Assembly (NCBI GenBank): GCA_964437395.1
Contig: CAYTGW010000001.1
Coordinates: 4,153-68,152, forward strand
DNA from: an uncultured Desulfocicer sp.
GTDB taxonomy: Bacteria; Desulfobacterota; Desulfobacteria; Desulfobacterales; SURF-7
Length of the DNA: 64,000 nucleotides
Direction of reading: 5' to 3'
The position numbers and the translations under genes were made by a program. Position 1 is the first letter of the stretch. Each line of letters starts with the position of its first letter. Shown piece after piece: positions 1 through 31,960 of this stretch. The notes under the pieces were generated by a model, which worked only from the letters and a program-made list of their open reading frames with translations, searched no databases and was not told the DNA's origin.

Positions 1-747
1 TCATGATGATCTTTTTTCCTTCAGGGCTTTATGCATCCTGCGCAATTCTTCCGCCTCATCACAGACCGGCTGAAATTCACAGCTTTCGCAGTCAAAATCA
101 TGATCCTCTGTCATCTTGGTCATAGCATTGATCAATTGCATAAACCGGTCCCCGGTCTGTTTTAATTCAAGAACATCATGATTGGATGAGGTGACAAACA
201 ATATTTCAACGCAATCCACATAATCCAGGGATTTTAATTTCTGCATCATTGCGCTTCCGAGAATGGGCAGGGAAAATCCGCTGTTAACCGCTTCCCGGCT
301 GATTCGGCTCCATTCTCTCATGTACTGGGATACGGCCCGCATCATATATCCTTTCAGGGAAATATCATACCGGGAAAGATCCATTTCCCGGAACCGGGGA
401 TAGCTGTTTTCCTCGTCAAATCCTGTGCCACCGATCAGAACTACCCTTCCAAAGGGAAGACGGTCTGAATCAGCCTCACCAATATCCGGACCCAGAAGCG
501 AAATTTTTCCATCATGCACACGAGTCAGGTCATTTGTCCAGACCAGGAAGGAAACCGATTGATCCTTGGGGTTACCCAGTTCCACGCCGGTATCGGATTG
601 CAGGATGATATCTCTCGAACCTGCTGCCGGCCATGAAATTTCCGGGGAAGACGGATATTCCCGGATGCGAAAAGAAGTCCTTGGCTTTTGCATGAAGGTT
701 CTGACTTCTTCAATAATACTATGAAAGAGCTGCATGTTATTGTTCAC
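1..747 (-). CDS. Hypothetical protein, last gene of the BCR/HGD-like operon. The central region resembles the N-terminal domain of acetyl-CoA synthase beta (CdhC/AcsB). C-terminal CxxCxxxxxC motif.
   Basis: Complete 248-aa ORF with its stop at 1-3. Its start overlaps the end of the upstream ATPase gene. The stretch ISLLGPDIGEA..LPFGRVVLIGGTGFDE matches CdhC/AcsB N-termini from memory. CESCEFQPVC lies near the C-terminus. Confidence 0.45.
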   Translation of the reverse strand: MNNNMQLFHSIIEEVRTFMQKPRTSFRIREYPSSPEISWPAAGSRDIILQSDTGVELGNPKDQSVSFLVWTNDLTRVHDGKISLLGPDIGEADSDRLPFGRVVLIGGTGFDEENSYPRFREMDLSRYDISLKGYMMRAVSQYMREWSRISREAVNSGFSLPILGSAMMQKLKSLDYVDCVEILFVTSSNHDVLELKQTGDRFMQLINAMTKMTEDHDFDCESCEFQPVCDEAEELRRMHKALKEKRSS

Positions 748-1519
748 TCATCCGGGATGCAATCAATGCAGCACCAAGGGCGCCGGTTATTTGAGGGTCG
801 ACATTTTTCATGGAATGAACCGGTTTTTTCAAAGAGGTTGAAAGAGCTGCAAACAATCCTGAATTTTTGGCAACCCCTCCGGTCATGATAATATCATCTT
901 CTGTTCCGATGCTGAGCACCATGGAAGCGACACGTCCTGCCATGGCTGCGTGAAGCGCCTTGATGATATCCGGTACAGCCCGTCCCTCATTGACCAGTGA
1001 AACCACTTCTGTCTCGGCAAAAATAACGCACTGGTTGGAGATAACGAGTTTTTCAGTTGACCGTGAGGAGATTTCTCCCATGTCATCCAGGCTGACATTC
1101 AGGGCATCGGCCATAACCTCTAAAAAGCGTCCGGTTCCGGAAGCGCATTTGTCATTATAAAGATACCGGACAACATTTCCGTTTTCATCCATTCGAATGG
1201 CTTTTGCATCCTGCCCACCGATATCGACTACCGTTCTGGCTGTTTGCAGATTCCAGAACGCTCCCCTTGCATGGCAGACAATTTCAGATTCGACTGCATT
1301 TGCAAAGGGAATCATCTCCTTTCCATAACCGGTGGCAACGATTCTTTTGATTTTCTCCATGGAGAGTCCGGAATCGGCAAGTGCAATGGCCATAGCTTCT
1401 TTGGCAGAATCAACCGGATTTGTCCCTGCTCGGACTACACCTTTTCCGATAACAGCATTGTCTTCCATTATTATAGCCTTTGCCGAAAGAGAACCAATAT
1501 CACATCCAGCTACGATCAT
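737..1519 (-). CDS. BcrAD/BadFG/HgdC-type ATPase (activase, or electron-transfer subunit of a 2-hydroxyacyl-CoA dehydratase / class I benzoyl-CoA-reductase-like enzyme)
   Basis: 260 aa. N-terminal GCDIGSLSAKA, internal DIGGQD, KCASGTGRFLE and TGGVAKN motifs typical of this acetate/sugar-kinase-fold ATPase family. Confidence 0.85.
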   Translation of the reverse strand: MIVAGCDIGSLSAKAIIMEDNAVIGKGVVRAGTNPVDSAKEAMAIALADSGLSMEKIKRIVATGYGKEMIPFANAVESEIVCHARGAFWNLQTARTVVDIGGQDAKAIRMDENGNVVRYLYNDKCASGTGRFLEVMADALNVSLDDMGEISSRSTEKLVISNQCVIFAETEVVSLVNEGRAVPDIIKALHAAMAGRVASMVLSIGTEDDIIMTGGVAKNSGLFAALSTSLKKPVHSMKNVDPQITGALGAALIASRMSEQ

Positions 1520-1520
1520 T

Positions 1521-2312
1521 TTAGGACCTCCCGTTTACACTTTCCATTGCAAAAATGGCTGCACCAATGGCCCCGGCAATCTGGGGATCAGCCTTTCTCA
1601 TCTTTTTAATATTTTTGCCCAGAAGCTTTTCCAGGTCTTGAACCACACCCTCATTTTTGGCAACCCCTCCGGTCATACAGACATCCTGTTCAATACCGAC
1701 ACTGTTTGCCAGTATGGCCACTCTTTTGGCCATGGCACTGTTCACCCCGGCACCGATATCTTCTATTTTGTGTCCGGAATTGATATATTTGATAATATCT
1801 GCCTGTGCCCAGACTGTGCAGGTTGAGGAAAGGGTAATGGGTGCCGTTGATTTGGAACTCAGGCTTCCCATGTCCTCTATGGGTATGTTGAGAAGGCGTG
1901 CCATTACTTCCAGAAAACGGCCGGTTCCGGATGCACACTTATCATTGGCAACAAATTTTACCACATTGCCGTCTTTATCAAGCCGGACTGCCTTACAATC
2001 CTGACCCCCGATATCAATGATGGTTCTTGCACCTGGATTCAGCCAGCGCGCACCTTTCCCGTGGCAGGCGATTTCAGAGACATCCTTGTCCACAAATGAA
2101 ATGTTTTTTCTTCCATATCCGGTGCCGACACAATATTTGATTTCATCCATGGAAAGACCCGCTTTTGATAATGCTTCCTGCATAACTGCTTCCGCAGAAA
2201 GCTGCGGGTTTGTTTTGGATCGGAGAAGTGCGGAGCTGATGATTCTGCCTTTTTCCATGATTACTGCTTTTGCGGTTAAAGAACCAACATCGCATCCTGC
2301 AACGATACTCAT
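1521..2312 (-). CDS. Second BcrAD/BadFG/HgdC-type ATPase subunit
   Basis: 263 aa paralog of the neighbouring ATPase (GCDVGSLTAKA, DIGGQD, KCASGTGRFLE, TGGVAKN). Two different ATPase subunits fit a BcrA/BcrD-like heterodimer. Confidence 0.85.
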   Translation of the reverse strand: MSIVAGCDVGSLTAKAVIMEKGRIISSALLRSKTNPQLSAEAVMQEALSKAGLSMDEIKYCVGTGYGRKNISFVDKDVSEIACHGKGARWLNPGARTIIDIGGQDCKAVRLDKDGNVVKFVANDKCASGTGRFLEVMARLLNIPIEDMGSLSSKSTAPITLSSTCTVWAQADIIKYINSGHKIEDIGAGVNSAMAKRVAILANSVGIEQDVCMTGGVAKNEGVVQDLEKLLGKNIKKMRKADPQIAGAIGAAIFAMESVNGRS

Positions 2313-3709
2313 AACAACCCCCTTACATTTAAAAATTCATCCAGTCGCGCAGCCGTGGCCTCCCAGGATTCAACCCGGTCATCAAAAGCATCCCCATACA
2401 TGATATGCGTCGGATATCCGGCTTTTTCCAGATCCTTAGCGATCAGTTTTACATTGGACCATGTATTTCTGCATCCGGGGGTACCATTATAGATAAGACA
2501 GTCCGCCTTGTAAATTTTGGCAAGAGCCAGAGATTCCTCCAGCCACATGTTCGGCCGGTCATAAGGACCACGAATGGTTCTGACCATGGTCATTCGTGAG
2601 TTGATCATCGCGATGCTGTCGATCATGGTGTCAAGACTGGTGGTATCGATGTTGTAAGCAACATCCTTCATTCCTTTGACATAGGGAGAATCATCCTTGA
2701 AGGAACGGCTTAAAATACTTCCGATATGGTTGATCTCACGCTTGTCGAGCCAGTTCCACAGGTTGAGATTCAGGGCATAATGATCAATATAAAATAAAAA
2801 AGCCCGTAACTTTTCCTTACCTGAGGAGATGCCGGATCAGCCCAGCTCGGCATGATCCCGGACGACCTTTGACATTTTTTCCAGAATTTCAGTGTACTCA
2901 GGCATTAATACAAAAAAAAAACGTCCACCGTAAATCAAAAAATTGTAGGTTACCGGAAGTGGACTGGGTACAATCCGTTGCAACTCTTCCATTTCACCTA
3001 CTATGGCTTCCTGCCTGGCAACCTCATCCAGCACCTTTCCAAGCCGGTCATGGTCCAGTTTTTTTCCAGTCTGTTCCTCCAGAAATTTGATCAAGGCTTT
3101 GAAATCATCTCGATGGTATTGGTTAACTTCCGGGTCATTGAGGCTTGCCGGATAATTCAGGGAGTAGAATGGTTTGTCCAGAAAGGTTTTGGCAAAAGAA
3201 AAGGCATTTGCATTGGTATCACAGATCCCCGCTGTATTGATTACAAGCATATCGATTTCTTCACCCATTCCTGCCAGATAGGCGCCAAGGCATCCTCTCT
3301 GGGAAGAGCAGGAGGTTTCGGTAAAACCAAGCTCTACGCAGAAGTCCATGTACTCGGTGGCCCCGCGTTTCCACATGACCGATGCGAGAACCGTGAGAGC
3401 TTCGAGTGTAACCGGTACAATATCCATTGCATAAAAAATGGTTGGCGAAAAACAGAACGTAGTCATTACAATTTTTTTCCCTTGTTCGTGGGCTGTTGTA
3501 ATGTTCTTCAGATACTTGCTGAGCATTTTGAAAAAAGCACTGCCCGGGTCACCTAGGTTGATAAAAGGCTCTACAATCCCTCTGAAATAGGGAATATAGG
3601 GCAACATACGTCTGTATTCTTTGTCAAACCCATCAGCTACTTTTGATGCAGCTTCCAGGGTACGCCAGAGCATCCAGTCAAAATTATACTCATATACTTC
3701 CGGTCTCAT
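2309..3709 (-). CDS. HgdA/HgdB/BcrB/BcrC-family subunit. It is one 466-codon reading frame interrupted by a single in-frame TGA at 2837-2839 (selenocysteine candidate or nonsense mutation).
   Basis: ORFs 2837..3709 and 2309..2671 are in the same frame. My hand translation of the 55 codons between them (2672..2836) found no further stop. The C-terminal part carries the family's conserved distal motif (ADCLIYNGTPGCRNTW, equivalent to IRFCDLHG in the paralog), so both halves are needed for a full-length subunit. Confidence 0.6.
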
Positions 3710-3733: not shown

Positions 3734-4870
3734 TTACACCATCCGTTCCAGGAATGCCTCAATGCGCATTTTCATCCTTCCGGTTTCGGTCAGCGGTCCA
3801 TATTCCCGTTCAAGCCTCAGGCAGGGGATTCCCATTTTTTCAAAATCCCGTTCAAAAAGTCCGTTTTCGGAACCATGCAGATCGCAGAACCGTATATTCT
3901 GAAGAATGATTCCTTCTACACCGGTTCTTTTGATTTTTTCCTTTAACAGATTAAAACGATGGTTGTATGCGCCGAACATTCTCGGACAGACAGAATTGGA
4001 AAGATAGTGCTTTGTTAGAGCTGATATTGGCGCATCTTCCATATTCACCTGATCTGCTTCACTTCGAATTCCAAAACAGATATTATCCGCAACTACAGTA
4101 GAACCGGCGTTTTCAATCAACCGGATAAGCTCGATGTCGTCATTGATGCTTCCGGCCACCATAATCCGTTTGCTTCCATTTTTCGAACTTGTTTTTTTTT
4201 TGGGTAGCTTTGAAAGTAGTTGTTCAAGTTTTTCGTTAAACGTTTCTCTCGGCATAACCGTTCCGGCAACGGCTATTGAAAAAGCATCTGTCCCTGAAAT
4301 CCTTATATCTTTCTTTGATCTGAGTTTTTCAATTTCCCAGAGAAGCATTCTGCCGTGGTTGTATATGGATATTGAATTTTTTAGATTCTCTTCGGTTATT
4401 TTCACACCATAATAGCTTTCAATATTTTGGATCAGTTTCCGAATTTCATTTTCAAACCATTTCATTGCATGGGGATCGGTTTTATGGGGAACATCAAAGT
4501 AGTGAAAAAAACCGGGTATGGAGCCTTGATAATCCTCTCCGGCTTTACGCCAGCACTCATCCAGTCTGCGCATGGCGTCACATCCGGTGGAGATGACGGC
4601 GCCGCTTAAAAAACTGAACTTTCCTTCTCCTGCGAGCTGGAGCAGACACTTGGGAAAGGTGCAGACATATGGCCCGTAATAGGAATCCCCGATTTCCATG
4701 CTTTCTGTGGTAATTCCCCGTATCCGGTAAGGCAGTATGTCTGCGGCATGAAAGATTTCAGGGGGCATGAATGAACAGGTATACCCGACGATTTTTTTGC
4801 CGTTGTTCAACCAGTCAGTAATATACCGGTTGGTTATTCCGGATGCAGCTTCTTGAAATATTTCCATCAT
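3734..4870 (-). CDS. HgdA/HgdB/BcrB/BcrC-family subunit (2-hydroxyacyl-CoA dehydratase D-component / BCR catalytic subunit-like)
   Basis: 378 aa with the distal motif GIILQNIRFCDLHG and the overall family pattern. Its stop lies 25 nt upstream of the next subunit gene. Confidence 0.8.
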   Translation of the reverse strand: MMEIFQEAASGITNRYITDWLNNGKKIVGYTCSFMPPEIFHAADILPYRIRGITTESMEIGDSYYGPYVCTFPKCLLQLAGEGKFSFLSGAVISTGCDAMRRLDECWRKAGEDYQGSIPGFFHYFDVPHKTDPHAMKWFENEIRKLIQNIESYYGVKITEENLKNSISIYNHGRMLLWEIEKLRSKKDIRISGTDAFSIAVAGTVMPRETFNEKLEQLLSKLPKKKTSSKNGSKRIMVAGSINDDIELIRLIENAGSTVVADNICFGIRSEADQVNMEDAPISALTKHYLSNSVCPRMFGAYNHRFNLLKEKIKRTGVEGIILQNIRFCDLHGSENGLFERDFEKMGIPCLRLEREYGPLTETGRMKMRIEAFLERMV

Positions 4871-6360
4871 AGTTGCACCTCCTTTGGTTGCAACAAGGAC
4901 TGAATCGCTTCTCTGGCATTTTCAATTGCCGGCCCCTCATTTTTTTCTACAGGCAAAAGCCAGTCACAAGCAAGTGTAACCAAATGGGGAAGAACGATAC
5001 GTCCAAGTGGCTTAAGGCTCTGGCCGATATCGCCAATGATTCCGCTGACCGCATCCTCAACTTCGTACAGATCGATACTGTCTACAATTTGAGAAATCAT
5101 GGAAGGTAACAGTTTCCGGTTATTTTTACGTATTCGATTGATCAATAGAGATGATAAATTAACAATCTCGGCAATTTCAGCAAAGTCCAATTGTGAAAGG
5201 GTTTTTGAGAAGGCATCGGAGGTCTCTTTTTCCGGAAGATCGCACATCAGTGCGGCTTTGCGACTCATGGTTTTGATGGCAGGATTGTAAAGAAACTGTG
5301 AACGGCTAATTGACTCAAGTATGATTTGGGGGTTGTCTTTTAAAATTTTAAAAATCTTAGCTGTAACAGTCTCTTTTCCGGAAGCAAGTCCTTCCCGCGC
5401 CCGGAATAGTTTTTCAATTTGAACAGTAGATGAAAAAGCATCCAGAAAACCCGATATATCCCGATTCAGGCCGGATGAGCCAGAATCACCGATCAGTGAG
5501 CTTCCGGTATCCAGTTTTCGAATCAGTTCAGCAAATTCATTAACGGTCTGCCCGAGATTTTTAGCATCCATATCCCGGAAGCAGGAAAGAACTACATCGG
5601 CAACAAGATCCGGGGCGAGGTTGTTAAATCTGCCAATAAACTCATTGATTGTTTTGATCAGAATATTGGCAATGGTTGGTAAATATGAGACCAGGAGAAC
5701 GACTTTTGCCGGATACTTCCAGATTACATCGTTGATCATCTTTACCGTTTCACCCGAGATACCGGACACAGATTCGAGGAGTTCCTTAATCTCGCCAAAA
5801 TCAGTATCCTCAATCCATTTTGTGACACCGGGTTTTATGATCTCATTTAGAAAGCCGGGTGAATCCGATTGTGTGCGGGATAGCACTCTTGCCCAGGTAG
5901 TTATCACTTTGCCGGTTCTTCCGGTAAATATTCCGGAAATTAATTTGCCAAGGGCTTTTTGTTTTTCTGTTAAAGGAAGACTTTCCAGCCCCTTTCCGAT
6001 CTCATCTGCAAGATCAAAAAGCACATCCAGAATTTTGGGAAGCTGGTCGGCCATATTTTGAATGCGATCGGGATTTCGAAACAGCTTTGCCAGATCGCTT
6101 TGACCCAGAATATCTTCTGGCCTTGATAATCCGTTTTTTATATTTTTTCCAATGGCCCGGGTCGTTATTTTTTTTGCAAAATTGTTACCTGCCCAGGCAT
6201 TGAGCACTTCCGGAACTGCATTGGCGATAATCGTTCGGATTTCCCTTGTATTCATGAGTTCTGTCAGCAGTATGACTGCCGGATCGTATCCATTCGTGTC
6301 AGAACCTTTCTTTTTATGAATCCCTTGTCTGGGTGTTTGTTGCTGTTGTTCAGTATGCAT
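4867..6360 (-). CDS. Hypothetical 497-aa protein with no recognisable domain, embedded in the BCR/HGD-like operon
   Basis: Long ORF whose stop overlaps the start of the downstream gene (4867-4870). The sequence looks helix-rich. I see no motif I can name. Confidence 0.55.
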   Translation of the reverse strand: MHTEQQQQTPRQGIHKKKGSDTNGYDPAVILLTELMNTREIRTIIANAVPEVLNAWAGNNFAKKITTRAIGKNIKNGLSRPEDILGQSDLAKLFRNPDRIQNMADQLPKILDVLFDLADEIGKGLESLPLTEKQKALGKLISGIFTGRTGKVITTWARVLSRTQSDSPGFLNEIIKPGVTKWIEDTDFGEIKELLESVSGISGETVKMINDVIWKYPAKVVLLVSYLPTIANILIKTINEFIGRFNNLAPDLVADVVLSCFRDMDAKNLGQTVNEFAELIRKLDTGSSLIGDSGSSGLNRDISGFLDAFSSTVQIEKLFRAREGLASGKETVTAKIFKILKDNPQIILESISRSQFLYNPAIKTMSRKAALMCDLPEKETSDAFSKTLSQLDFAEIAEIVNLSSLLINRIRKNNRKLLPSMISQIVDSIDLYEVEDAVSGIIGDIGQSLKPLGRIVLPHLVTLACDWLLPVEKNEGPAIENAREAIQSLLQPKEVQL

Positions 6361-13859: not shown

Positions 13860-15077
13860 CTATGCCAGCATGTCCGATGCTTTTCTCATCAGATTTCCGA
13901 TCTCGATCTTCTGCGGGCATTGTCTTTCAGCAGAGGAAAAGTCAACTGCGGCAATCCGCTGCCGGATATCCTTTGGCATCCGGCTTACGATCAATTCAGA
14001 GAACTCCTTTTCTCCATAGGTTTCCTGGTACATGAGATATCTCATGATATCACTGATCGGAACTTTTCTCTGGATTTCCGCTTCACAGATATGGGCGCAG
14101 CCGGCACAATACCCGGAACAGGTATCCAGGGCATACTGGTGCATCAGTTCTATATCTTTTACAGCCAGGCTGGTTTTATTCAGGGCAGCGGAGATGTTGG
14201 ACATGAGTATGGTTGAATTGGGCATCTGGGAGCAGAGACTGGCGATATCCGGATTTTCCCAGACGGCTTTGAGTTTGGCCTGTTTGTCGGTGAATCCTTT
14301 TTGGATAAATCGGCCGGCCATCTGAATCTCCGTATCAGAGCTGGTTTTCACCGATCCGCCGCCCTGGGTTTTCATGGCAGTGACACCGATTCCAGCCTCG
14401 ATGCAGGCCTGGAGAGCTTCCTTCATGTCATTTTGGTGCATAAGTCGGAAATTATAGGTGGTCATGATGCCGTCTATCCAGCCAAGTTTTGCGGCGCTCA
14501 TCAGGCACGACTGCATATTCTGGTGGGTACTGAACCCGAACAGCCGGATTTTGCCTTGCTTTTTTGCATTTTCCGCCCACTTCCGGACCTTGTCGTTCAG
14601 GGGGTCGGTGCTGCTAAGGGCGTGCATGAAATACAGGTCAATGTAGTCTGTGCCCATCCGTTTTAAGGATGTATCCAGCATCGTGGTCATCTCTTCTGTG
14701 TCCAGGGTATAGGCTTTGGATACCAGAAAGATTTTGCTGCGATCCTGGGGTTTGCTCTGAAAATATTTGCCGATCCCGGTTTCACTTACACCATTGCCAT
14801 ATGAATTGGCTGTATCCCAGTAAGTCACTCCGAATTTCATGGCCAGATTCAGGACAATTTTGTTGGAGGGAATATCAAACATGCCGCCGAGGGAGAGAAT
14901 GGAAACCTCTTTTCCGGTTTTTCCGAACTTTCGTGTGGGAACAATCATATTCTGGCTTGATTCTGCAACAGCATTCTGCTGAAACAGCGGCTGGGATGCA
15001 AGTGCGCTGACACCGACTGTTCCCGCGGTTTTTAAAAAAGCCCTTCGAGAACATCCTTTTCCCTTTGATGACGTCAT
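13860..15077 (-). CDS. Tat-exported aldo/keto reductase with a C-terminal Cys cluster
   Basis: 405 aa. SRRAFLKTAGTVGVSALA twin-arginine signal, AKR motif GVTYWDTANSYGNG, and a distal CSGYCAGCAHIC cluster. Confidence 0.8.
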   Translation of the reverse strand: MTSSKGKGCSRRAFLKTAGTVGVSALASQPLFQQNAVAESSQNMIVPTRKFGKTGKEVSILSLGGMFDIPSNKIVLNLAMKFGVTYWDTANSYGNGVSETGIGKYFQSKPQDRSKIFLVSKAYTLDTEEMTTMLDTSLKRMGTDYIDLYFMHALSSTDPLNDKVRKWAENAKKQGKIRLFGFSTHQNMQSCLMSAAKLGWIDGIMTTYNFRLMHQNDMKEALQACIEAGIGVTAMKTQGGGSVKTSSDTEIQMAGRFIQKGFTDKQAKLKAVWENPDIASLCSQMPNSTILMSNISAALNKTSLAVKDIELMHQYALDTCSGYCAGCAHICEAEIQRKVPISDIMRYLMYQETYGEKEFSELIVSRMPKDIRQRIAAVDFSSAERQCPQKIEIGNLMRKASDMLA

Positions 15078-15098
15078 AAAAGTCTCCTTTATGTGGAT

Positions 15099-16025
15099 TT
15101 ATAAATACAGGTTTTTTTTCATGAATGCACCGTCTTTTTCAAAGAAAATATCAACCTTGTCCAGCAGCCTTTTTGCCTTTTCCTTTGTGGCTTCATTGGC
15201 AAAGGCTTTTTCCGGGAGCAGATCTTCAGGAGCCGAAATAATCTTGTTCAGGGTAGAGACAAAAAGCTCCCGATCCTGGGTCTGAACGCAATAATATTTG
15301 GCAAACAGAAGATGCCAGGGTAAAAATTTGGATTCCGATATCTGAAACGCTTTGTCAAAATGATATTTTGCAAGCTCCAGATCCCCGCCCATGTCATTGG
15401 ACTTTGTAGAATGATAGGATCCGAACATAACATGAATTGCGCCAAAGTTGAAGGTGTCGTCAAGCTCCATCATTCGATCCATCATGGCAAGCACCTTTGG
15501 ACGGTCATTATTCACAATGGATATATCAAATCTCCACCCAAGTCCGAGGTAGGAGAGCCAGCTGTTTGTGGAAAAAAACAAGGCGCGTGCATCATCCTTG
15601 GTGAGTTCTTTCAATCCTTGTTCAAATTCGTCATTTGAACAAGCCAGCGGATCTCCCATTGCCTCGTTTTGTTTCAGGGCTCTCAAGGCATAGTCCCGGG
15701 CTTTTTTGTGGAGTTTCGCAGCCCGCCATTTGTCATTGTCTTCGACAAAAAGAAAAGCATACCCGCTGTAAGCTTCTGCTGCCCTGAGGAGAAGATCCCG
15801 GTTATCCGGAGATGCTTCAATAAATCCGTCCAATTGGATCAGGCTTGCCGGCATAGCCTGGCGCACGGTTTCCACATCTTTGTTTTGATTCGTGGAAATA
15901 CTCATTTTTTCCATGATCGGTTTCATGTTGCTGATCATCAATTCTGTTCGTGCCGCACTGGTACAACCCATGAGCATGATCGCCAAAAGAGGTATCAGTA
16001 AAGTCTGATTTTGAATCTTCACCAT
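15099..16025 (-). CDS. Lipoprotein, TatT-like TPR-type protein (tentative)
   Basis: 308 aa with the lipobox LMGC at the end of the signal peptide. Helical-repeat body. The resemblance to the TRAP-T-associated TatT family is from memory only. Confidence 0.5.
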   Translation of the reverse strand: MVKIQNQTLLIPLLAIMLMGCTSAARTELMISNMKPIMEKMSISTNQNKDVETVRQAMPASLIQLDGFIEASPDNRDLLLRAAEAYSGYAFLFVEDNDKWRAAKLHKKARDYALRALKQNEAMGDPLACSNDEFEQGLKELTKDDARALFFSTNSWLSYLGLGWRFDISIVNNDRPKVLAMMDRMMELDDTFNFGAIHVMFGSYHSTKSNDMGGDLELAKYHFDKAFQISESKFLPWHLLFAKYYCVQTQDRELFVSTLNKIISAPEDLLPEKAFANEATKEKAKRLLDKVDIFFEKDGAFMKKNLYL

Positions 16026-16165
16026 GGAACTCTCCTTCTGTTCTGTGTCAATGGTTATTCCCTAACAGCCGGCTTCTTTTCCTATTATAAATATTGATAG
16101 ACGCTGGTTTCAATATCAGGAAAAATATTAATATTCAAGAGGATCGGATGATAATTATGATATGC

Positions 16166-16474
16166 TCATACAGTGGGATTTGTTTCACAGGCGTTGTTCA
16201 GATCTTGAGCCATTTTTGAAAGATCATCGGTTGCCATTAAAATTTCAGAGACACCTGCTTTGGTTTGCGTCACGGATGTTACAAGTCTTTTAATGCTTTC
16301 CATGGTCTCACCGCTTCCACCAGCACCCATTCTGACACGGCTGGCGATCTCTTCTGCTGAAGTTGTCTGCTTCTCAATGGCTTTTAAAATTTCATCCTGA
16401 ATACGGGTCATACTGGAAATTACTTTCGATATGGCTTCAACTGCTTTATTTGTATACAGGGTATCAGACATGTT
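16166..16474 (-). CDS. Stand-alone fragment-like protein (102 aa) matching only the C-terminal part of a methyl-accepting chemotaxis signalling domain
   Basis: Internal ATG at 16474 preceded by AAGGAGA. The sequence QTTSAEEIASRV..LVTSVTQTKAGVSEI..ATDDLSKMAQDL resembles the distal helix of MCP signalling domains. It has no sensor, HAMP or transmembrane part. Confidence 0.5.
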   Translation of the reverse strand, partial: NMSDTLYTNKAVEAISKVISSMTRIQDEILKAIEKQTTSAEEIASRVRMGAGGSGETMESIKRLVTSVTQTKAGVSEILMATDDLSKMAQDLNNACETNPTV

Positions 16475-16508
16475 GTCTCCTTGGAAAATGATAGGATGGT
16501 ATTTTTTC

Positions 16509-16660
16509 CTATGAGCCAATTTCAAAAGTCTGTTGTTGTAGTTCCGGCGAAAGCCGGACACAAATTGAAGCGTAACAGTATCCAGTATTTTCAGTTCTTT
16601 TCTGGACATCGGCTTTCGCCGGTGTGACGCTTTTCAATCGTTTTGAAATTGGCTCCTATG
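16509..16660. repeat. ~150-nt imperfect palindromic element (inverted duplication of a ~50-nt module)
   Basis: GAGCCAATTTCAAAA (16513..16527) is the exact reverse complement of 16641..16655. CCGGCGAAAGCCG (16544..16556) is the exact reverse complement of 16610..16622. An 18-nt piece recurs at 55611..55628 (17/18 match). Confidence 0.6.
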
Positions 16661-16858
16661 ATCTGATTATCAGAAAAAGTTGATTTGGAATAGATCAAAA
16701 TGTCTTTTACCTGCTTTACAATCCCTGGATAAGCTGATACATAAACATTACATCAAGTTCCTGTATCAGTTATGAAATTCATCTGTTAATTCCGTATTCA
16801 GAATTTCGGATTTCATTTTAAAATCATAGCATGAGCCAATATGAAAATGAGGTGATCG

Positions 16859-17743
16859 ATGACAGAATGTGTTCGATATGATGATGCACTGGATCATTTA
16901 TTGGGGTTGTTGAAGCTTGAAAAAATAGAAGAGAACATATTTCGTGGCAACAGCCAGGATTTGGGATTTGGAAATGTGTTCGGTGGGCAGGTTCTCGGGC
17001 AGGCGTTGTCCGCAGCTTCCCAAACCGTTACGCCGGAACGCGGTGTGCACAGGCTGCATGCGTATTTTATGAGGCCCGGTGATCCGGCAAAACCGATCAT
17101 CTATCAGGTTGATTGCATCCGGGATGGTAAAAGCTTTACAACCCGGCGGGTGGTCGCCATTCAAAAAGGCCAGGCCATATTTTCCCTGTCTGCGTCCTTT
17201 CAAATTCAGGAAGAAGGTTTTGAGCACCAAGACTCTATTCCTGACGTTCCAGGGCCTGAAGGGCTTCTGTCAGAAATGGAAAGAGCAATGCAAGTCAAAG
17301 ACCAGATTCCTGTCTCAATACGCGACAAAATATTGTGCGTGAAACCCATTGAGATCAGGCCGATAAACCCCATCAACCCTTTTGCACCAACCAGGGAAAA
17401 ACCGGTTAGATATTCATGGTTCAAAACCATACATAAAATGCCGGATGATATTGCCGTGCACAAATATTTATTGGCGTACGCATCTGATTTCGGGCTGGTT
17501 GCAACTGCGCTTTATCCTCACGGACATACATTCTGGGAACCAGCCATGCAGGTTGCGAGCCTGGATCATGCCATGTGGTTTCATCGCGACTTCCGGATTG
17601 ACGAGTGGCTGCTGTATGTTATGGAAAGTCCCAGTGCAAGCAAGGCAAGGGGGCTGTGCCATGGTAATATTTATACCCAGGACGGGCGGCTGGTCGCATC
17701 CACCACTCAGGAGGGTTTGATCCGGTACCGGCCCAGGAAATAG
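16859..17743 (+). CDS. tesB: Acyl-CoA thioesterase II
   Basis: 294 aa. N-terminal LLKLEKIEENIFRGNSQDLGFGNVFGGQVLGQAL and a double hot-dog length typical of TesB. Confidence 0.85.
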   Translation: MTECVRYDDALDHLLGLLKLEKIEENIFRGNSQDLGFGNVFGGQVLGQALSAASQTVTPERGVHRLHAYFMRPGDPAKPIIYQVDCIRDGKSFTTRRVVAIQKGQAIFSLSASFQIQEEGFEHQDSIPDVPGPEGLLSEMERAMQVKDQIPVSIRDKILCVKPIEIRPINPINPFAPTREKPVRYSWFKTIHKMPDDIAVHKYLLAYASDFGLVATALYPHGHTFWEPAMQVASLDHAMWFHRDFRIDEWLLYVMESPSASKARGLCHGNIYTQDGRLVASTTQEGLIRYRPRK

Positions 17744-17804
17744 CATTTTTTTTCATTCAGTTTGTTTCGACATCATCAATATGCATGAAAACAAAGAAAT
17801 CTTA

Positions 17805-20774
17805 TCAAATATTCTCCTGCTGCAAAGTTTCCTTAATATCAATGCTTTTAATCAATTCATATGCAATGCTGCTGCTTGTCAGGCGCATGATGCTCTCTTC
17901 AGAGTATCCGAAACTCAGCAGGTTAACACTTCCATACCAGGTTATTTTTTGATCAATGACAGCAAATTTTTGATGGATATTTGACCTGAACATGACTTGC
18001 ACTCCTGCATCTTCTAAAAGCGCAAATGTTTTTTTCAGAGTTGTTTTTTTATTTTCATTAAAATCTTCAACCGGTCTTGTCATAACTGTTATTTTTACCT
18101 GGTGTTGTAAAATCGTATTAAACTGCTGCATCATCTGCATCACCCGTTTTTGAGTGACAAAAGGGCTGACAATCAGAACCTGTTTTAATGCATTCTTTAT
18201 GTCTCCCAGGTAAACCGGAAAAAAACTGTTTTGATCAAAAATAATGTCTATTGATGCATCAGGAATATTTCCTTCTTTTGTTTTATAGCCAATAGAGGCA
18301 TAGGCTTTCAGCCTTTTTCCATACATTTTTTCAAGCATTTTTATATGGATATCAACGTAGTCGTATATCTGGACATCCCGTTTCGTCTTGAACAAGCGGT
18401 GGAGCCTTCCGGCATATTGCTGCAATGTACCTTTCCAGGCAACCGGCATGGTTAAAAACAAGGTATCAAGACGTGGTTCATCAAACCCTTCGCCAATGAA
18501 ACTGCCGGTTGCAACCAGAACAAATGGTTTATTCACAGGAGTTGAAGATATTTTCCTTAATGCTTCTGTTGTTTTTTTAATTCCCATTCCGCCGGTGAGC
18601 CTTATGATATCAGGGATTCTTTTCTTTAAGATTTCGCTCAATAATTTCACATGGGCTACTCGTCCGGTAAGAACCAGAGAATTTCTTCCCTTTTTATAGC
18701 ACTCCAACACATCATCAATGATTAACTGATTCCGGATTTCGTCTTCTATCAGCGCTGAGTATACTTCCTGAATGGATAGGTCTTTCTGGTTTTCATTGGA
18801 CCCAATTTTAAACGAAGTAAATCTTGGGACCAGATAGTGATCAAAAGGCCTTTTTTCTGCCTGTTCTTTTGAATCCACCGTAAACCTTACGGGGCCTAAA
18901 TGAAAAAAGATAATTGGATGATGCCCGTCCGGTCTGGAAGGCGTTGCCGTTAAGCCGTAAACATATTTGGCGGTTGTATTTTTAATGATTTGCTCAAAAC
19001 TGAAAGCCGGGACATGATGGCATTCATCGACGATAATCATTCCATAATTTTTTATGCAGTCTTTTAAATTTCCATCCATATGCAATGACTGCATAATGGC
19101 AACATCTACAATGGAATTTAATTGGTTTTTACCTGCACCCAACTGGCCGATTAAATTTTGCTTCTTTTTTCTGCCTCTTTTTTGGGGTGTTTCAGGGAGT
19201 ACTTCGTGAATCAAAAGGAATTCGGAGAGTTTTTCCTTCCACTGTGACAACAACTGTTGCCTATGTACCAATACAAGTGTATTTACCTTTTTAATACTGA
19301 TTAATCTAGCTCCGACAACGGTTTTTCCAAAAGCAGTTGCAGCCGACAGTACACCGTTTTCATGTTCAATCAGTGCATCAAGCGCATCCTGCTGTTCCTT
19401 TGTGAGCACACCATTGAATTCTACATTGATCGACCGCCCCTGGTTTGCTTCATCAACCCAATGCAACTTTATCTGAAATTCTTTGAACAGGTTGTTTATA
19501 TCACTTTTACACCCACGGGGCAGTGCCAGATATTCTTTAAAATCTTCAGCGCAGGAAATAACCCTTGGCTTATTATATGTGGGCATTCGCATGGCCTGGT
19601 TTTTATAAAATTCCGGATTTTGAAAAGCTGCAAATCGTTTCAGAGTATTTAATGCTTTTTGACTTAGTCCTGATTTTTTGACATACAGCATCCCGGAATT
19701 CACGATTTCAACAGTTTCGGGAAAATCCTGATGTTGTAACTTTGAGATCTTTTGTATCCAGGGCTTTTTGTCACTTGTTTCCTCATTTTTCAAAACACCC
19801 AGCTCATTTCCCTTGCAGAGCTTTGTTATTAAAGAAGCCAGCTCTTCTTCAGGTAGCTTTTGAATACCATATAAAAATCTCCACTGATCTGCATAAGGCT
19901 CAAACTCTTTATCGACAAAAAGAGTATTGTGCTTTTCCCTTGCAAATTTCTGAAGCGGCAGGGCAATCAGGTTTCCGAGTCCGCCTTTGGGCATTGTATC
20001 CTGATTGGGAAATAATCTGTCGTAGGATGTAAAGGAGATCTCATGTCTTTTCCCCATTGAATATGTCAGCAATGACGTTCCAAATTTTCTCGCTGCTGAG
20101 GCGGATAGTTTATCCTTAAAGAAAAACCAAACATGGCCGCCATTACCGGATCTGGAACGTTCAACTGCAATCGGAATTCCAAACTCAGCACATGTATCCC
20201 GTATGGCTGAAATATCTTTTTCCCAACCCTTGTTATCAAAATCAATAGCCAGAAAATAGCAGGTTTCATCAAGATTCATCGGATAAATCCCGATCACAAT
20301 ATCGCCGCGAAGGTGTTCTTCAACAACCATTTCATCCAGTTTAGAATATGATTTTTGGGTACATTTGGAACATTTAATTCTGGGTTTGTTACACACGCCG
20401 GGTGTCCACTCATTTAAGCAGACCGGGCTATATCCGGATAACCCCTTTTTGTTTTTCCATCTTTTGGCATATACATCGCATCTGCCTTTAAACAGTGACA
20501 TGAACAGCTCAATTTTATTTTCCTTTGTAGAATATTGATCAACAGTTTTTTCGTAATTGGAGTTAGTTCCTATTCGTTCTTCTTCAAGCCGATTATCAAG
20601 ATTGATTTTATCTGTTTCTCGTAATGACAATATTTGAGTTTGTGATGTTTCAGGATTGGATTGAATAAAAGATGGGGCAGCTTCTAATCCTTCTATTTTT
20701 GCTTTCAAACATCTGTTCTCTTCAAGCAGATCCTTATACTTCCTATATAATTCATCATATTCTAAGGTATTCAT
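17805..20774 (-). CDS. Fusion protein: coiled-coil N-terminus, archaeo-eukaryotic primase (AEP/Prim-Pol-like) domain, SF2 DExH helicase, and C-terminal PLD (HKD) nuclease domain
   Basis: 989 aa. AEP motifs LAIDFD, SRSGNGGHVWFFF and DRLFPNQ. Helicase motifs AFGKTVV, IIVDECHH, LTATP, ATGSFIGEGFD and QYAGRLHR. Exact HKD motif HQKFAVIDQKITWYGSVN (HxKx4Dx6GSxN). Confidence 0.8.
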   Translation of the reverse strand: MNTLEYDELYRKYKDLLEENRCLKAKIEGLEAAPSFIQSNPETSQTQILSLRETDKINLDNRLEEERIGTNSNYEKTVDQYSTKENKIELFMSLFKGRCDVYAKRWKNKKGLSGYSPVCLNEWTPGVCNKPRIKCSKCTQKSYSKLDEMVVEEHLRGDIVIGIYPMNLDETCYFLAIDFDNKGWEKDISAIRDTCAEFGIPIAVERSRSGNGGHVWFFFKDKLSASAARKFGTSLLTYSMGKRHEISFTSYDRLFPNQDTMPKGGLGNLIALPLQKFAREKHNTLFVDKEFEPYADQWRFLYGIQKLPEEELASLITKLCKGNELGVLKNEETSDKKPWIQKISKLQHQDFPETVEIVNSGMLYVKKSGLSQKALNTLKRFAAFQNPEFYKNQAMRMPTYNKPRVISCAEDFKEYLALPRGCKSDINNLFKEFQIKLHWVDEANQGRSINVEFNGVLTKEQQDALDALIEHENGVLSAATAFGKTVVGARLISIKKVNTLVLVHRQQLLSQWKEKLSEFLLIHEVLPETPQKRGRKKKQNLIGQLGAGKNQLNSIVDVAIMQSLHMDGNLKDCIKNYGMIIVDECHHVPAFSFEQIIKNTTAKYVYGLTATPSRPDGHHPIIFFHLGPVRFTVDSKEQAEKRPFDHYLVPRFTSFKIGSNENQKDLSIQEVYSALIEDEIRNQLIIDDVLECYKKGRNSLVLTGRVAHVKLLSEILKKRIPDIIRLTGGMGIKKTTEALRKISSTPVNKPFVLVATGSFIGEGFDEPRLDTLFLTMPVAWKGTLQQYAGRLHRLFKTKRDVQIYDYVDIHIKMLEKMYGKRLKAYASIGYKTKEGNIPDASIDIIFDQNSFFPVYLGDIKNALKQVLIVSPFVTQKRVMQMMQQFNTILQHQVKITVMTRPVEDFNENKKTTLKKTFALLEDAGVQVMFRSNIHQKFAVIDQKITWYGSVNLLSFGYSEESIMRLTSSSIAYELIKSIDIKETLQQENI

Positions 20775-20776
20775 AC

Positions 20777-21421
20777 CTAAACATTATATGGCAAAAGCAC
20801 ATGATATATTGTAAAATTATTTTTAGCTTTTATGTGTACAGTTTCATAACATGAACATTCTTTTTCATTCAGCATAGATGACATTTTCAATTTCACCGGG
20901 GGCTTTATTCTCAGTGAACTTTTATAAACTTCTAATGCTTTATTGATGGCAGATATAGCCTTTTTAACATCATTATCGATCACATAGCCAATCATTCCTC
21001 CACAATCACTGCCGCCGTCATACTGTCCGGAAAGAAAACAGCCCATGCCTTCTTCACCGACATATTTGCCTGCCTGACTGGAGTACTTGCCTTTATGAAC
21101 TACATTCAAACGTTTGCATTCAAATGCAAAGAATACTTTTGGACGTTTACCGTGCATAACCCGAATATCAAGCTCCCCTATTTCCGTATCTTGGCTTGCA
21201 TCAACAAGTTTGATATTTGGATCGAACCAAAAGGGTAGTTGACGATTTTCCTGGCATGATTGCAGGTGGCCAATAAAAGGTTTTGTAATCCTGTTCTCTA
21301 AAGGGTTTCGAGGTGTTCTAAGAAAGTTGTTCCATTCTTTAAAAATTTCATGAAATACCCATGGCAATAAATTTGGTGGAAAGGAATCTGCAAAATCATC
21401 AAAGGTCCCAATTATATTCAT
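20777..21421 (-). CDS. Small PD-(D/E)xK-type nuclease candidate
   Basis: 214 aa. GELDIRV followed by FAFECKRL fits the D...ExK restriction-endonuclease-fold signature. The start overlaps the methyltransferase stop (ATGA at 21418..21421). Confidence 0.5.
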   Translation of the reverse strand: MNIIGTFDDFADSFPPNLLPWVFHEIFKEWNNFLRTPRNPLENRITKPFIGHLQSCQENRQLPFWFDPNIKLVDASQDTEIGELDIRVMHGKRPKVFFAFECKRLNVVHKGKYSSQAGKYVGEEGMGCFLSGQYDGGSDCGGMIGYVIDNDVKKAISAINKALEVYKSSLRIKPPVKLKMSSMLNEKECSCYETVHIKAKNNFTIYHVLLPYNV

Positions 21422-24400
21422 ACATTCTTCTTCGGTGAGGAGATAATCAGATCAAAAAGATTCTGTGCATCATTTAGCGCAGCGGTTCGAGTCCATTTGC
21501 CAAGCATATCCGGTTTTAAAATATGAATTTTGTTGTTTTCTGCAAAAACAATTCCTCTTAAATATGAAAGGCTGCCCCGTTCACTTGATGATGCATCTGA
21601 AATCCTTTTTAAAGCATTAACCATTTCAGGACTTTCATGATTAACCGCAACGCCCTTTCTTCTGCTATTTGTTTTACAAAGAGTAATTAATACTTGACCT
21701 AACTTGTTAAACTTGGTTGATTCCGCACAGAAAAAAAAAGATGGGTGATCAGGTTGCCATGCATCCAGCATCCAGCTATTGAAAGTATTGCATATCCATT
21801 CTGAGTATTGTAAACGATCATTTTTAGTTGTTCTCTGCAAGGTCTTGATGGGTTTACCATAGCGATCGGGTGTTGCACTTTTTGCGTAAATTCCACACGT
21901 ATCCTCAATCAAGGCAATCTCTTCTTGTGTAAGCCCAAAATAGTCATACACAAGGGGTTCAAGTTCTTGAGACAGGTTTTGGGATTTTTTGTGGCGAACT
22001 TCATCAAACGTATCACCATGAAGCACAGGGGTTTTATAGTCCTGATAAAGGTCTTCTAATTCTTTTTTAAAGGCCTGTAACTTTGAAGCGATTTTTTTAA
22101 TCACCTGCTGTGCCTTTTTTTTATTCATCCCCATACTGTCAGGCGTGGGGAATGGGAGTCGTAGCAACTCATGCAGCTTTACTTCTGTTCTCTCGATTCC
22201 CCAACTGCCGGATGTATGGTACTGAAAATATGATGCCAGTCGGGACTGAGCATAAACCGAGAAAAACATAAGAAGGTCTTTGTCTTCTGTGGGACCGGAT
22301 ATTCCAGTTACTGAGTCCTGATAAAATACAAAAAAATCAGCAAATAAAAAACGGGTAAAACCTTTGTTAATTAGAACCAACGGGGGGGCAAAAATACACT
22401 TATCCGGGCTTCGGCGAAAACCTTTTAAAGAAGCATGACGTTTTGAATCTGATAATTTCGGATCTTTATATCTTGTTGTTTCAAGCTTATTTTGAAGTGT
22501 TATGCAGTCATTTGATAAAATAATAAATTTTGCATTTTGGTCCGTTGCCTCAATAAATAGATCATTAAGTTTGCCGGGTATTGGTTTGGGATCGCCATAT
22601 GTTGAAGGATTCAGTTCATATCCAGCTTTATACCAAATTTGAAATCCCTTACCTTTTTTCCAGCTTTTATCTGACTTCGGTTTCCCGGCTAATTGGTCAA
22701 GGGTTGGTAGATTTTGTAGATAATGAATCAATCTCCAATCACGAGGAGTGCCTGAATAACGACTTTTCCATAAAGCCGAAGCTGTTTTTTTCTCTGCCGA
22801 ATCAATCAACTCCTTTAAAAAAATCGTTATACAATCATCGGGAGCCACTGGAATTTTACCGACCACAGGATCCTGTCCCAAATATTTGGGTACAACATAA
22901 TCAATTTCATGAACATTAATATCAGGCCTATTCGAATTAAAGCGGGTAATAAAGCATGGGCGGATTGCTTTCTCAAACAATAACCGCCGATAGTCTGCCA
23001 ACTGGATGATTTTATACACAGTGCTTCTCTTAAACCACTCTTTCTGAAAAATATCGGTTTTATTCAGCAGCACTTCAGAAGGTAGAAGCATACAGCAGTT
23101 ACCGGATTTTTTCAGATGAAGCAGCACTTTCCACATGAAGGCATGAGCGACCTGATCTGAAGGATAAAAAATACTTTTCCTATATGTCTTTTGTTTAGAG
23201 ATTTCAGGGTCGCGAAGCAAAGGATTGTGCTCCTCATCCTCTAACCACTGTATCAGAATTTTATCAGGCTTGGATGTCCTTCCTGGCCAAGGGGGGTTTC
23301 CTATAATCACATCAAAGCTACTATGTATCGGCAGATCGTGTTGAAAAAAATTTCCTTGAAATATACTGGCATCATCAATATTTTGCCACTGTTGATCAGC
23401 ATACGCGAGAAGTTTTGGCAGTATTTTTCCGTTATTATTTTGGAGCTTGTGCAGATAGCGCGGTTCAAACTGGTCCAGAAATGCAACATAAAGACTGAAA
23501 CATGTGATGCGGCATGCTGTTGGATTAATATCAATACCGTATAGATTTTCCCTTAATAACTTTGTGAGTTCTTTAATTTTAATCTTATCATCGAGTGATT
23601 TGTTGTTTTGATACCATTCATCAGCCATCCGATTGAATAATGTAACAAGAAAAATACCAGACCCGCATGATGGATCTAAAAATGATTTATCCAACAATGT
23701 TGATGTCTGTAAATTTGAGACCGCTTCGTCAACGACCATTTCAGCCAAATGACGCGGTGTATAAAATGCACCTTTGGATCTTTTATCTTCCGGATTTTCG
23801 ATACCAAGCAGCGCTTCATATATTGCACTGATTGTTTCAACAGGTATAATAGAAAAGTCATAGGCCCAAAAGCCCAGCACCATTTGACTTGAATCAGTTT
23901 CCTGACCTTGTAGAAATTTTCGTAAAAGAATAAAATCACTGTTCTTCAGCATTGAGAGTTCAGACTGAAAGTCATCTTCAAACATGCTTCCATTAAAATC
24001 TTCTTTTAATGATGAAAAAAGAATATTCAAGCATTTACGAATTTCTGATTTTGAATTCAGCTCGAATAATTCTAGCAGGGATTTAATTTTTAGTTCAGAA
24101 AGAAGGTTGTAATCATCAAGAATAATTATTCCTCGATCGATCAGATAGCAGGTAAATATAAGACGTCCCAAAAAGGAGTTTATTTTTCTTCTATACGCAA
24201 CAGTGTTTTCATGAGCTAAACGATCACTTAATTTGGTCAACTGATGAATTAAATAATGATCAACGGTATCTCTTGGGTGGAATTTTTCCGGCCGGGAACG
24301 ATAGTATTCTCCGGTTGTTATTTGTTCGAACAATTTATAGTTTTCAAGTGTATCAGCAACTCTTGTCAGTTTCTCCACAAAAGCGTCATGTTCTTCAATA

Positions 24401-24741
24401 GGACTTTCAATCTCGTTATTTGGCTTAATCATACCTGAAAAAATATAGAGCATGTGTGGATCTTGGAGAATAAGAATCGTTGCTGTGGATTGGTTCCAGA
24501 ATTTTTTATGCAAATCGTTTACTTGAGAACGGTTAATGGAGGATTCAAAGTTTTTTAAATATACAGATGGTTTCCCATCTATACAAAAAATGCCATCAAG
24601 CCCCATTGATTGAAAAGCTCTTCGCATGTGATGGGCTTGACCAAAATTCGCATATTGATTTACATCTTCTACAGAGCTGAAATATTCATTTTCAGGTACA
24701 GATTGCAGACCGAAAGTTTTAGCTGATTTTACTCGGCTCAT
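21418..24741 (-). CDS. Large N6-adenine DNA methyltransferase (gamma-class, Eco57I/MmeI/PglX-like architecture)
   Basis: 1107 aa. SAM motif I LDPSCGSGIFLV precedes motif IV VIIGNPPWPG. The upstream helical segment FLGRLIFTCYLIDRGII resembles the one in type IIG/IIL and BREX methyltransferases. There is a long C-terminal region that may be the target-recognition domain. Confidence 0.85.
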   Translation of the reverse strand: MSRVKSAKTFGLQSVPENEYFSSVEDVNQYANFGQAHHMRRAFQSMGLDGIFCIDGKPSVYLKNFESSINRSQVNDLHKKFWNQSTATILILQDPHMLYIFSGMIKPNNEIESPIEEHDAFVEKLTRVADTLENYKLFEQITTGEYYRSRPEKFHPRDTVDHYLIHQLTKLSDRLAHENTVAYRRKINSFLGRLIFTCYLIDRGIIILDDYNLLSELKIKSLLELFELNSKSEIRKCLNILFSSLKEDFNGSMFEDDFQSELSMLKNSDFILLRKFLQGQETDSSQMVLGFWAYDFSIIPVETISAIYEALLGIENPEDKRSKGAFYTPRHLAEMVVDEAVSNLQTSTLLDKSFLDPSCGSGIFLVTLFNRMADEWYQNNKSLDDKIKIKELTKLLRENLYGIDINPTACRITCFSLYVAFLDQFEPRYLHKLQNNNGKILPKLLAYADQQWQNIDDASIFQGNFFQHDLPIHSSFDVIIGNPPWPGRTSKPDKILIQWLEDEEHNPLLRDPEISKQKTYRKSIFYPSDQVAHAFMWKVLLHLKKSGNCCMLLPSEVLLNKTDIFQKEWFKRSTVYKIIQLADYRRLLFEKAIRPCFITRFNSNRPDINVHEIDYVVPKYLGQDPVVGKIPVAPDDCITIFLKELIDSAEKKTASALWKSRYSGTPRDWRLIHYLQNLPTLDQLAGKPKSDKSWKKGKGFQIWYKAGYELNPSTYGDPKPIPGKLNDLFIEATDQNAKFIILSNDCITLQNKLETTRYKDPKLSDSKRHASLKGFRRSPDKCIFAPPLVLINKGFTRFLFADFFVFYQDSVTGISGPTEDKDLLMFFSVYAQSRLASYFQYHTSGSWGIERTEVKLHELLRLPFPTPDSMGMNKKKAQQVIKKIASKLQAFKKELEDLYQDYKTPVLHGDTFDEVRHKKSQNLSQELEPLVYDYFGLTQEEIALIEDTCGIYAKSATPDRYGKPIKTLQRTTKNDRLQYSEWICNTFNSWMLDAWQPDHPSFFFCAESTKFNKLGQVLITLCKTNSRRKGVAVNHESPEMVNALKRISDASSSERGSLSYLRGIVFAENNKIHILKPDMLGKWTRTAALNDAQNLFDLIISSPKKNV

Positions 24742-25379
24742 ATAGTAATCTTTTTTGTTAGTAGTCCAGACAATTTGCCCGCGATTTTAATTCGACAGTG
24801 GTCGGACTCTGGTATCACAATATCAGGGAAATCGAAATTTTCACTTTTTAATGAAACATGATCTGTATATCTAAAAAATCTTTTCAAGGTTGCTTCGTCT
24901 TCTATAATGACAGCAGCGATTTCTCCATTTTCAACAGAGCTTTGATGTCTGATAATTGCTATATCACCAATATTGATGCCTATATTTTTCATGCTGTCGC
25001 CTGTGACATGTAAAGCAAAATACTCCCCCGGGTCAAAAAAACCGGCTGGTACATTCAGCGTTTCCACGCCGGTTTGATTGGCTAATATAGGTACTCCTGC
25101 TGCAATATTCCCAATAATAGGAATTTGATTGTGGGATGATACTGGTTCAGATATGGCATCAGTAATTGATTTAAGTACCTGAATTCCACGTGATTTGCCA
25201 GGATATATTCTGATATAACCTTTTTTTTCAATCAGGCGAAGATGACTTTTAACAGCATTAATACTTTTATAGTGGAAGTTGACCGCCATATCTTCCAAGG
25301 TTGGTGGCATTCTCTCTATGGATAGATATTTGATAATGTATGAAAGAATTTTATTTTGAGTTAGCGTTAAGTCTTCCAT
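24738..25379 (-). CDS. lexA: LexA repressor (winged-helix DNA-binding domain plus S24 autopeptidase)
   Basis: Collinear with E. coli LexA: LT..Q..IL..I, MPPTLEDMA and SRGI in the N-domain; the Ala-Gly cleavage site in NIAAGVPILA; the GDSM serine and TLKRF lysine. I chose the start at the ATG at 25379 (M35 of the track ORF) because an SOS box occupies the upstream extension. The stop overlaps the methyltransferase start (ATGA at 24738..24741). Confidence 0.85.
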   Translation of the reverse strand: MEDLTLTQNKILSYIIKYLSIERMPPTLEDMAVNFHYKSINAVKSHLRLIEKKGYIRIYPGKSRGIQVLKSITDAISEPVSSHNQIPIIGNIAAGVPILANQTGVETLNVPAGFFDPGEYFALHVTGDSMKNIGINIGDIAIIRHQSSVENGEIAAVIIEDEATLKRFFRYTDHVSLKSENFDFPDIVIPESDHCRIKIAGKLSGLLTKKITI

Positions 25380-25390
25380 GGGGAAATCCA

Positions 25391-25410: not shown

Positions 25411-25497
25411 TGCAACAAAAAAATGTTATGAAGATAATTCACTATATTTTTAATGTTCAGTAGTCTATCAGGTATTGACAAGCGAAAAAAACTATGA

Positions 25498-31905: not shown

Positions 31906-31960
31906 GCAGGATGCCCTCCGAATTCGTGTCTCATCGAATTTGGGATGAAGTTTAAAAAAT

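Follow-up and report, generated by a model that had tools for sequence, protein, structure and literature searches.

We found that the gene for the larger HGD-D subunit at 2309..3709 (minus strand) of the window, the whole 64,000-nucleotide stretch of DNA analysed here, is interrupted by a single in-frame TGA at codon 291. We attribute this stop, with a probability of about 60%, to a recent nonsense mutation, in which case the gene would either have become a pseudogene lately or exist in the sampled population as a segregating variant. In the path that we propose, one C>T transition would have turned an Arg codon, CGA, into TGA. The residue concerned occupies a variable position, in a loop, of the larger subunit of a four-gene enzyme resembling class I benzoyl-CoA reductases or 2-hydroxyacyl-CoA dehydratases. 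Translated as written, the gene would yield a 290-aa fragment without the second alpha/beta domain and the conserved cysteines located there, and this copy of the gene would be inactive. The change is presumably a real mutation rather than a consensus error, and the product is presumably non-functional; "inactive" is to be read with the qualification that the column tolerates almost any residue, so that even slight near-cognate read-through would yield functional protein. Premature termination by nonsense mutation is in itself an already known kind of event.

Translation of the minus strand over 2309..3709 gave 466 codons followed by a terminal TGA, and the TGA at 2837..2839 was the sole internal stop, with A at position 2839 of the plus strand where the inferred ancestor has G. 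The open reading frames at 2837..3709 (290 aa) and 2309..2671 (120 aa) share a frame. The internal TGA is separated from the ATG at 2671 by 55 codons with no other stop, as had been stated in the earlier note, and with no ATG, GTG or TTG. The hand translation given in that note contained a small slip, RAFFIYIDHY instead of RAFLFYIDHY, the correct reading being ...KLRAFLFYIDHY... at this point. Both halves of the gene matched the Pfam family HGD-D (PF06050, cut-off 28.4 bits), the N-terminal ORF (2840..3709, minus strand) at profile positions 6-183 (E = 2.7e-28, 100 bits) and codons 292-466 with the terminal stop (2309..2836, minus strand) at positions 193-340 (E = 5.8e-14, 52.8 bits), the two matched segments being consecutive. 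In addition, more than 100 homologues, measuring about 465-475 aa and for the most part exactly 466 aa, aligned collinearly with the joined 466-codon frame and showed no gap around the site; their identity to it reached 93%. These consecutive profile segments and the gap-free collinearity indicate a single interrupted gene rather than two chance ORFs, and bear out the proposal, made earlier from the open reading frames, that one in-frame TGA splits a dehydratase/reductase subunit gene. The invariant cysteines of the family are C86, C134, C163 and C413, none of them close to residue 291; C413 and the nearly invariant C404 both lie 3' of the TGA, in agreement with the earlier view that the functional unit needs both halves (466 codons). 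If the stop is real, the 290-aa N-terminal ORF would be the sole product expected, and the part of the gene at 2309..2836 would remain untranslated barring read-through of the TGA.

The interrupted gene (BzdO/HadB-like, "alpha/O-type") is the second of four on the minus strand, which run in the order N-type subunit, O-type subunit and two BcrAD ATPases. The partner HGD-D subunit (BzdN/HadC-like, "beta/N-type") at 3734..4870 is intact, with 378 aa and an HGD-D match of E = 7.5e-87, and is 86% identical to its counterpart in L019, a locus from a metagenome-assembled genome (MAG) labelled Desulfosudis oleivorans. Both ATPases are intact and of the BcrAD/BadFG type; the first (1521..2312, minus strand, 263 aa, BcrAD_BadFG E = 2.9e-63), an activase-like electron-transfer subunit, has a start overlapping the stop of the interrupted gene (ATGA), and the second lies at 737..1519 on the same strand (260 aa, E = 6.3e-60). 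The Pfam score, the fold, and the adjacent partner subunit and ATPases all place 2309..3709 in the HGD-D superfamily. The fold was taken from the AlphaFold model of a homologue 93% identical to the window's sequence (P0001; pLDDT 82, pTM 0.88), rather than from a model of the window's own sequence. This model matched 8s02 chains A/C, 3o3m chains A/C, 9gai (chains A/E) and 6eno with E values of 1e-15 to 1e-13, and it places residue 291 in the loop that leads from helix 270-289 to strand 301-305. Given the order of the four genes and these structural matches, the operon is Bzd-like or dehydratase-like: it is laid out in the manner of a class I benzoyl-CoA reductase of the Bzd type or of an ATP-activated 2-hydroxyacyl-CoA dehydratase.

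Searches with the NCBIfam equivalogs gave scores below the cut-offs. Specifically, the N-terminal 290-aa half scored 17.1 against BzdO (cut-off 448.6), 33.1 against HadB (cut-off 750) and 40.4 against the double-cubane model (cut-off 350), the C-terminal half matched no NCBIfam model, and the partner subunit scored 146 against BzdN (cut-off 453.8). The neighbouring genes, encoding a GMC-like flavoprotein, a 497-aa protein, an enoyl-CoA hydratase, a HisA/F-like barrel protein and a polyferredoxin-like membrane protein, do not identify the substrate, and a literature search for a named function of the cluster returned nothing relevant. The gene belongs to an uncharacterised subfamily, nearly all members of which are 466 aa long, with representatives in Desulfobacterales, Smithella, Spirochaetota, SAR324 and other groups.

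Several features around the operon were also recorded. Directly after the two ATPase genes, a small protein with a CdhC domain (acetyl-CoA synthase beta) is encoded at 1..747 (minus strand); this companion is conserved in relatives and is unusual for a benzoyl-CoA-reductase-like or dehydratase-like system, and in one related locus (L002, 4633..6125) a CooC/CbiA-like ATPase comes next after it. The 497-aa protein (4867..6360, minus strand), located between the genes for the GMC-like oxidoreductase and the reductase, has no Pfam or NCBIfam match, is 87% identical to its counterpart in L019 and is syntenic in both L019 and the Logan contig L001. L019 carries, directly downstream of the orthologous cluster (14436..17859), a second, divergent HGD-D/HGD-D/BcrAD set sharing 22-40% amino acid identity with the genes of the window, and a counterpart of this set would fall beyond the left end of the window.

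The residue found at position 291 varies widely among relatives. In an alignment of the 120 best homologues, all of them full length, the column contained R (30), I (25), V (17), K (16), L (14) and E (8), with Q, T and A among the further residues and Cys in a single homologue (P0015); the aligned residue of HadB is Lys. Among the members of the window's 90% cluster, eight full-length or nearly full-length sequences were read, and Arg was present in seven and Gln in one. At the DNA level, the closest relative was L019 (89.7% nucleotide identity), in which codon 291 is CGA (Arg), as it also is in L005; five more relatives have CGC or CGT, L001 has CTA (Leu), and the remaining codons among the 18 related loci were CAA, ATA, ATT, ATC, GCT, GCA, ACT, TTG and AAA. 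TGA, TGC and TGT were absent from this position in all 18 related genomic loci. With CGA present in two relatives, including the closest, the TGA lies one C>T transition from the likeliest ancestral codon. Intact full-length orthologues thus exist, and the nearest relatives have a sense codon a single mutation away, as expected of a nonsense mutation. The earlier note had left the choice between selenocysteine and a fresh nonsense mutation; the side of nonsense mutation, pseudogene or sequencing error is favoured by these codons and by the lack of long-term relaxed selection described below, whereas the selenocysteine side fails on the variable, non-Cys residues of this column (Cys in 1/120) and on the absence of a shared TGA from the orthologous loci (0/18).

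Comparison with L001, L003 and L019 revealed no insertions or deletions in the gene and mainly synonymous differences; for example, 110 codons differed synonymously and 32 non-synonymously from those of L001. Substitutions private to the lineage of the window numbered 17 nonsynonymous and 36 synonymous, a ratio within the range of the relatives, and were distributed on both sides of the stop. The ten neighbouring genes were all intact and collinear over their full length with those of L019, with 86-96% amino acid identity. Apart from the stop, both the gene and the operon as a whole still appear to be under selection, so that the stop appears to be young, and these comparisons of sequence suggest that it arose recently relative to the divergence of about 10% from the nearest relatives. 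An old, decaying pseudogene was rejected on the same grounds, there being no indels, a private ratio (17/36) like that of the relatives, and intact neighbours. We also considered a premature stop in the partner gene, which encodes 378 aa compared with 394 aa in some relatives, and rejected it: the C-terminus of the partner in the window is of the common form, as in L005 and L007-L009, and the longer form is a lineage-specific extension (L019, L001 and L003).

Two further replacements are relevant to whether the stop is real. At codons 267-268 (2906..2911, minus strand), adjoining an in-frame run of ten T (2912-2921), the window reads GTA TTA (Val-Leu) and relatives read GCA GGA (Ala-Gly). The difference amounts to three GC>AT changes in a span of 5 nt and puts Leu in place of G268, a residue 99% conserved in the family. 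Downstream of the stop, codon 374 (2588..2590, minus strand) is ACC (Thr), whereas Pro is present in all 120 homologues, encoded by CCC in relatives. Both G268L and P374T are radical replacements at near-invariant columns, and the changes are all GC>AT. Two or more deviations at columns conserved to at least 98% were seen in only 8 of the 120 homologues. The two replacements would lean weakly toward a real relaxation of constraint over a lone base-calling error. On the other hand, a dN/dS-like ratio showing no relaxation would also be expected from an error in a functional gene, and counts against a real mutation.

The main rival explanation, and a serious one, is an artefact of assembly or sequencing, which we regard as possible but doubtful. 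According to it, the organism has a sense codon, most likely CGA for Arg, and the T is an error of base calling or consensus or comes from a chimeric strain consensus; in one variant, a strain with TTA or CTA (Leu) and another with CGA (Arg) could have given TGA in a per-column consensus. The sources of the data are consistent with such an origin: a single NCBI contig, of 86,060 bp, is the only recorded source of the exact 290-aa product, which occurs in no independent assembly, and the close relatives are all MAGs. Among the closest relatives, moreover, codon 291 encodes Leu in L001 (CTA) and Arg in L019 (CGA). The position of the codon points the same way, as it lies where the most variable part of the gene (the intervals beginning at codons 261 and 281, with 78-83% nucleotide identity to the four closest relatives, L001, L003, L005 and L019) meets the conserved segment SG(I/L)xSGxEKxR. 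Furthermore, the assembly of another MAG breaks exactly at codon 291. In this MAG, JAQYVL01 (Desulfobacterales SG_15_bin76), the orthologue is distributed over two contigs, one (L021) ending at 7612 and the other (L023) carrying it from 1..3, and the break falls at the codon homologous to the TGA (CGC there), with an overlap of 2 nt. This break is probably a branch of the assembly graph at the boundary between variable and conserved sequence, which suggests that strain-mixed assembly graphs branch at codon 291. The fully selected appearance of the rest of the gene and of the operon would also fit an error in a functional gene.

Several observations argue against such an artefact. We found no frameshift and no other broken gene among the ORFs annotated across the 64 kb, and the T10 run stays in frame, so the quality of the consensus looks good. 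In addition, relatedness to the other sequences does not switch at codon 291 as it would at a chimeric join; a recombination or chimeric junction at this codon was rejected for this reason, leaving the per-column consensus as a form that an artefact could still take. The radical changes at two further invariant columns, G268L and P374T, also hint at a genuine loss of constraint. On balance, we prefer the recent nonsense mutation.

Leaky read-through, in which a near-cognate tRNA (Trp, Cys or Arg) would sometimes decode the UGA and produce some full-length enzyme, appears unlikely. Column 291 lies in a loop and is extremely permissive: with nearly every residue acceptable there, read-through would yield a functional product; moreover, UGA is the leakiest stop in bacteria and the codons downstream of it are still conserved here. 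However, a young stop explains this downstream conservation equally well, UGA is present at this codon in no relative, and nothing points to a programmed event. The base following the UGA is U, and UGAU is an efficient termination context among UGA signals in E. coli, which counts against read-through, as does the absence of a stimulatory structure downstream. More broadly, that the UGA is decoded at all, whether an atypical signal directs selenocysteine insertion or a near-cognate tRNA reads through it efficiently, and that a full-length functional O-type subunit results, seems very improbable to us; such a protein would be the first case of recoding in the HGD-D / class I benzoyl-CoA-reductase-like family.

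Reading of UGA-291 as selenocysteine, which would make this the first selenoprotein of the HGD-D (HgdAB/BcrBC/BzdNO) family, is less probable still, and we rejected it. Selenoproteins are common in Desulfobacterales, the order to which this anaerobe is related. This background, the presence of just one in-frame UGA in a gene that is otherwise intact, and the one homologue of 120 that has Cys at the column (P0015) might suggest such a reading. The column, however, is occupied by R, I, V, K, L, E and other residues rather than by Cys, TGA occurs in no orthologue and CGA occurs in two relatives including the closest, and residue 291 is situated in a loop away from the conserved cysteines. The RNA also lacks the expected signal. 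Folding of the 76 nt around and after the UGA (2770..2845, minus strand) gave a minimum free energy of -13.8 kcal/mol, weaker than the mean of -15.8 kcal/mol for dinucleotide-shuffled sequences (z = +0.69), and contained no SECIS-like hairpin 3' of the UGA; the stems were of only 3-5 bp, much as the earlier note had described, and the sole correctly placed one was a 4-bp AU-rich GUAA/UUAC stem. Scans of the whole 64-kb window returned no Rfam match, no tRNA (ARAGORN) and no Sel-family match in Pfam or NCBIfam, so that it contains none of the Sec machinery (selA, selB, selC and selD). Our literature search found no selenoprotein reported in the HGD-D family, in line with the earlier note, which likewise knew of none; the one paper that touches on both subjects states that no connection with selenium is known for the related double-cubane proteins (10.1101/2022.07.06.499078). 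An alternative genetic code, with TGA read as Trp or Gly, was also rejected: TGA is the commonest ordinary stop in the window and terminates 24 of its 52 genes, including the interrupted gene at its own end, so the standard code applies.

A functional split gene, whose halves would be made separately and then assemble, the break being at a domain boundary, is equally remote and was rejected together with re-initiation: although the stop interrupts the Pfam profile match between positions 183 and 193, within the loop that leads into the second alpha/beta domain, no ATG, GTG or TTG follows for 55 codons, a product begun at the first canonical start (ATG at 2671) would lack strand 301-305 and helix 316-323, the ribosome-binding site of this ATG is poor, its AAGGA motif abutting the start with no spacer, and no split at codon 291 was seen among the best 120 homologues, the cluster members or the 18 loci, the short homologue records being contig-end fragments or one frameshifted copy.

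Elsewhere in the window, a low-GC island of four genes at 17805..25481 (minus strand; GC 0.37-0.39 compared with about 0.46 in the flanks) has the appearance of a defence island gained by horizontal transfer. One of its genes encodes a 989-aa fusion of an AEP-TOTE/PrimPol primase, an SF2 helicase and a PLD nuclease (Pfam "TOTE conflict system", E = 1e-102), and the others encode a 214-aa protein without assignment, a 1107-aa type IIG restriction-methyltransferase and a LexA/S24-like repressor. The region 51772..56257 (plus strand) encodes a 985-aa protein in which a Ser/Thr kinase is fused to four PEGA repeats and an FGE-sulfatase domain; a PP2C phosphatase and then a bacterial SET-domain protein come after it. 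Two stretches of 1.0-1.3 kb, 31945..33283 and 47080..48154, have a GC content of 0.37-0.41, no ORF of at least 100 aa and no Rfam match; the former, checked down to 30 aa, has no ORF longer than 73 aa, and each contains a short tandem repeat (32771..32818 and 47454..47491, respectively). A toxin-antitoxin pair, consisting of a Gp49/HigB-like toxin and an HI1420-type antidote, is encoded at 48154..48830 (plus strand).

For annotation, we suggest recording 2309..3709 as one HGD-D subunit gene that is interrupted, being a pseudogene or possibly the product of an assembly error, rather than as two hypothetical proteins or as a selenoprotein. Should the mutation be real, the copy of this uncharacterised ATP-dependent reductase or dehydratase in the sampled lineage would be inactive, which bears on metabolic reconstructions of this organism related to Desulfobacterales. 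The gene may also serve as a negative control for pipelines that predict selenocysteine, as one in-frame UGA in the gene for a redox enzyme is, in an anaerobe related to Desulfobacterales, insufficient for such a call. Beyond annotation, the relevance is small.

Among known systems, the operon resembles BzdNOPQ and MbdONPQ (8s02, 8s2r and 9gai) in having two HGD-D subunits (378 and 466 aa) and two BcrAD/BadFG ATPases, and the P0001 model superposes on chains A (438 aa) and C (431 aa) of the BzdNO complex with TM scores of 0.75-0.81. It differs from these class I (Bzd-type) benzoyl-CoA reductases in that the sequences share merely 14-19% identity, the equivalog scores are far under the cut-offs, the neighbours are not genes of the benzoyl-CoA pathway, and the copy in the window is interrupted. 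With HadBC and HadI, the (R)-2-hydroxyisocaproyl-CoA dehydratase system (3o3m), it shares the superfamily and the fold, and the HadB loop "...MKTGKSSF-RGEEKYR" aligns with the stop and has Lys there; however, HadBC is served by a separate homodimeric activator, whereas the operon in the window has two distinct ATPase genes, and the HadB equivalog score (33) compares with a cut-off of 750. The likeness to bacterial selenoprotein genes, in which a UGA is accompanied by a SelB-bound SECIS hairpin, goes no further than one in-frame UGA in a gene for a redox enzyme from an anaerobe, as there is no Cys/Sec column, no conserved UGA and no hairpin. From young CGA>TGA bacterial pseudogenes, by comparison, the gene did not differ in any of the features tested, and it shares with them a one-step change, intact orthologues, the lack of a restart codon and a coding sequence that is not yet degraded.
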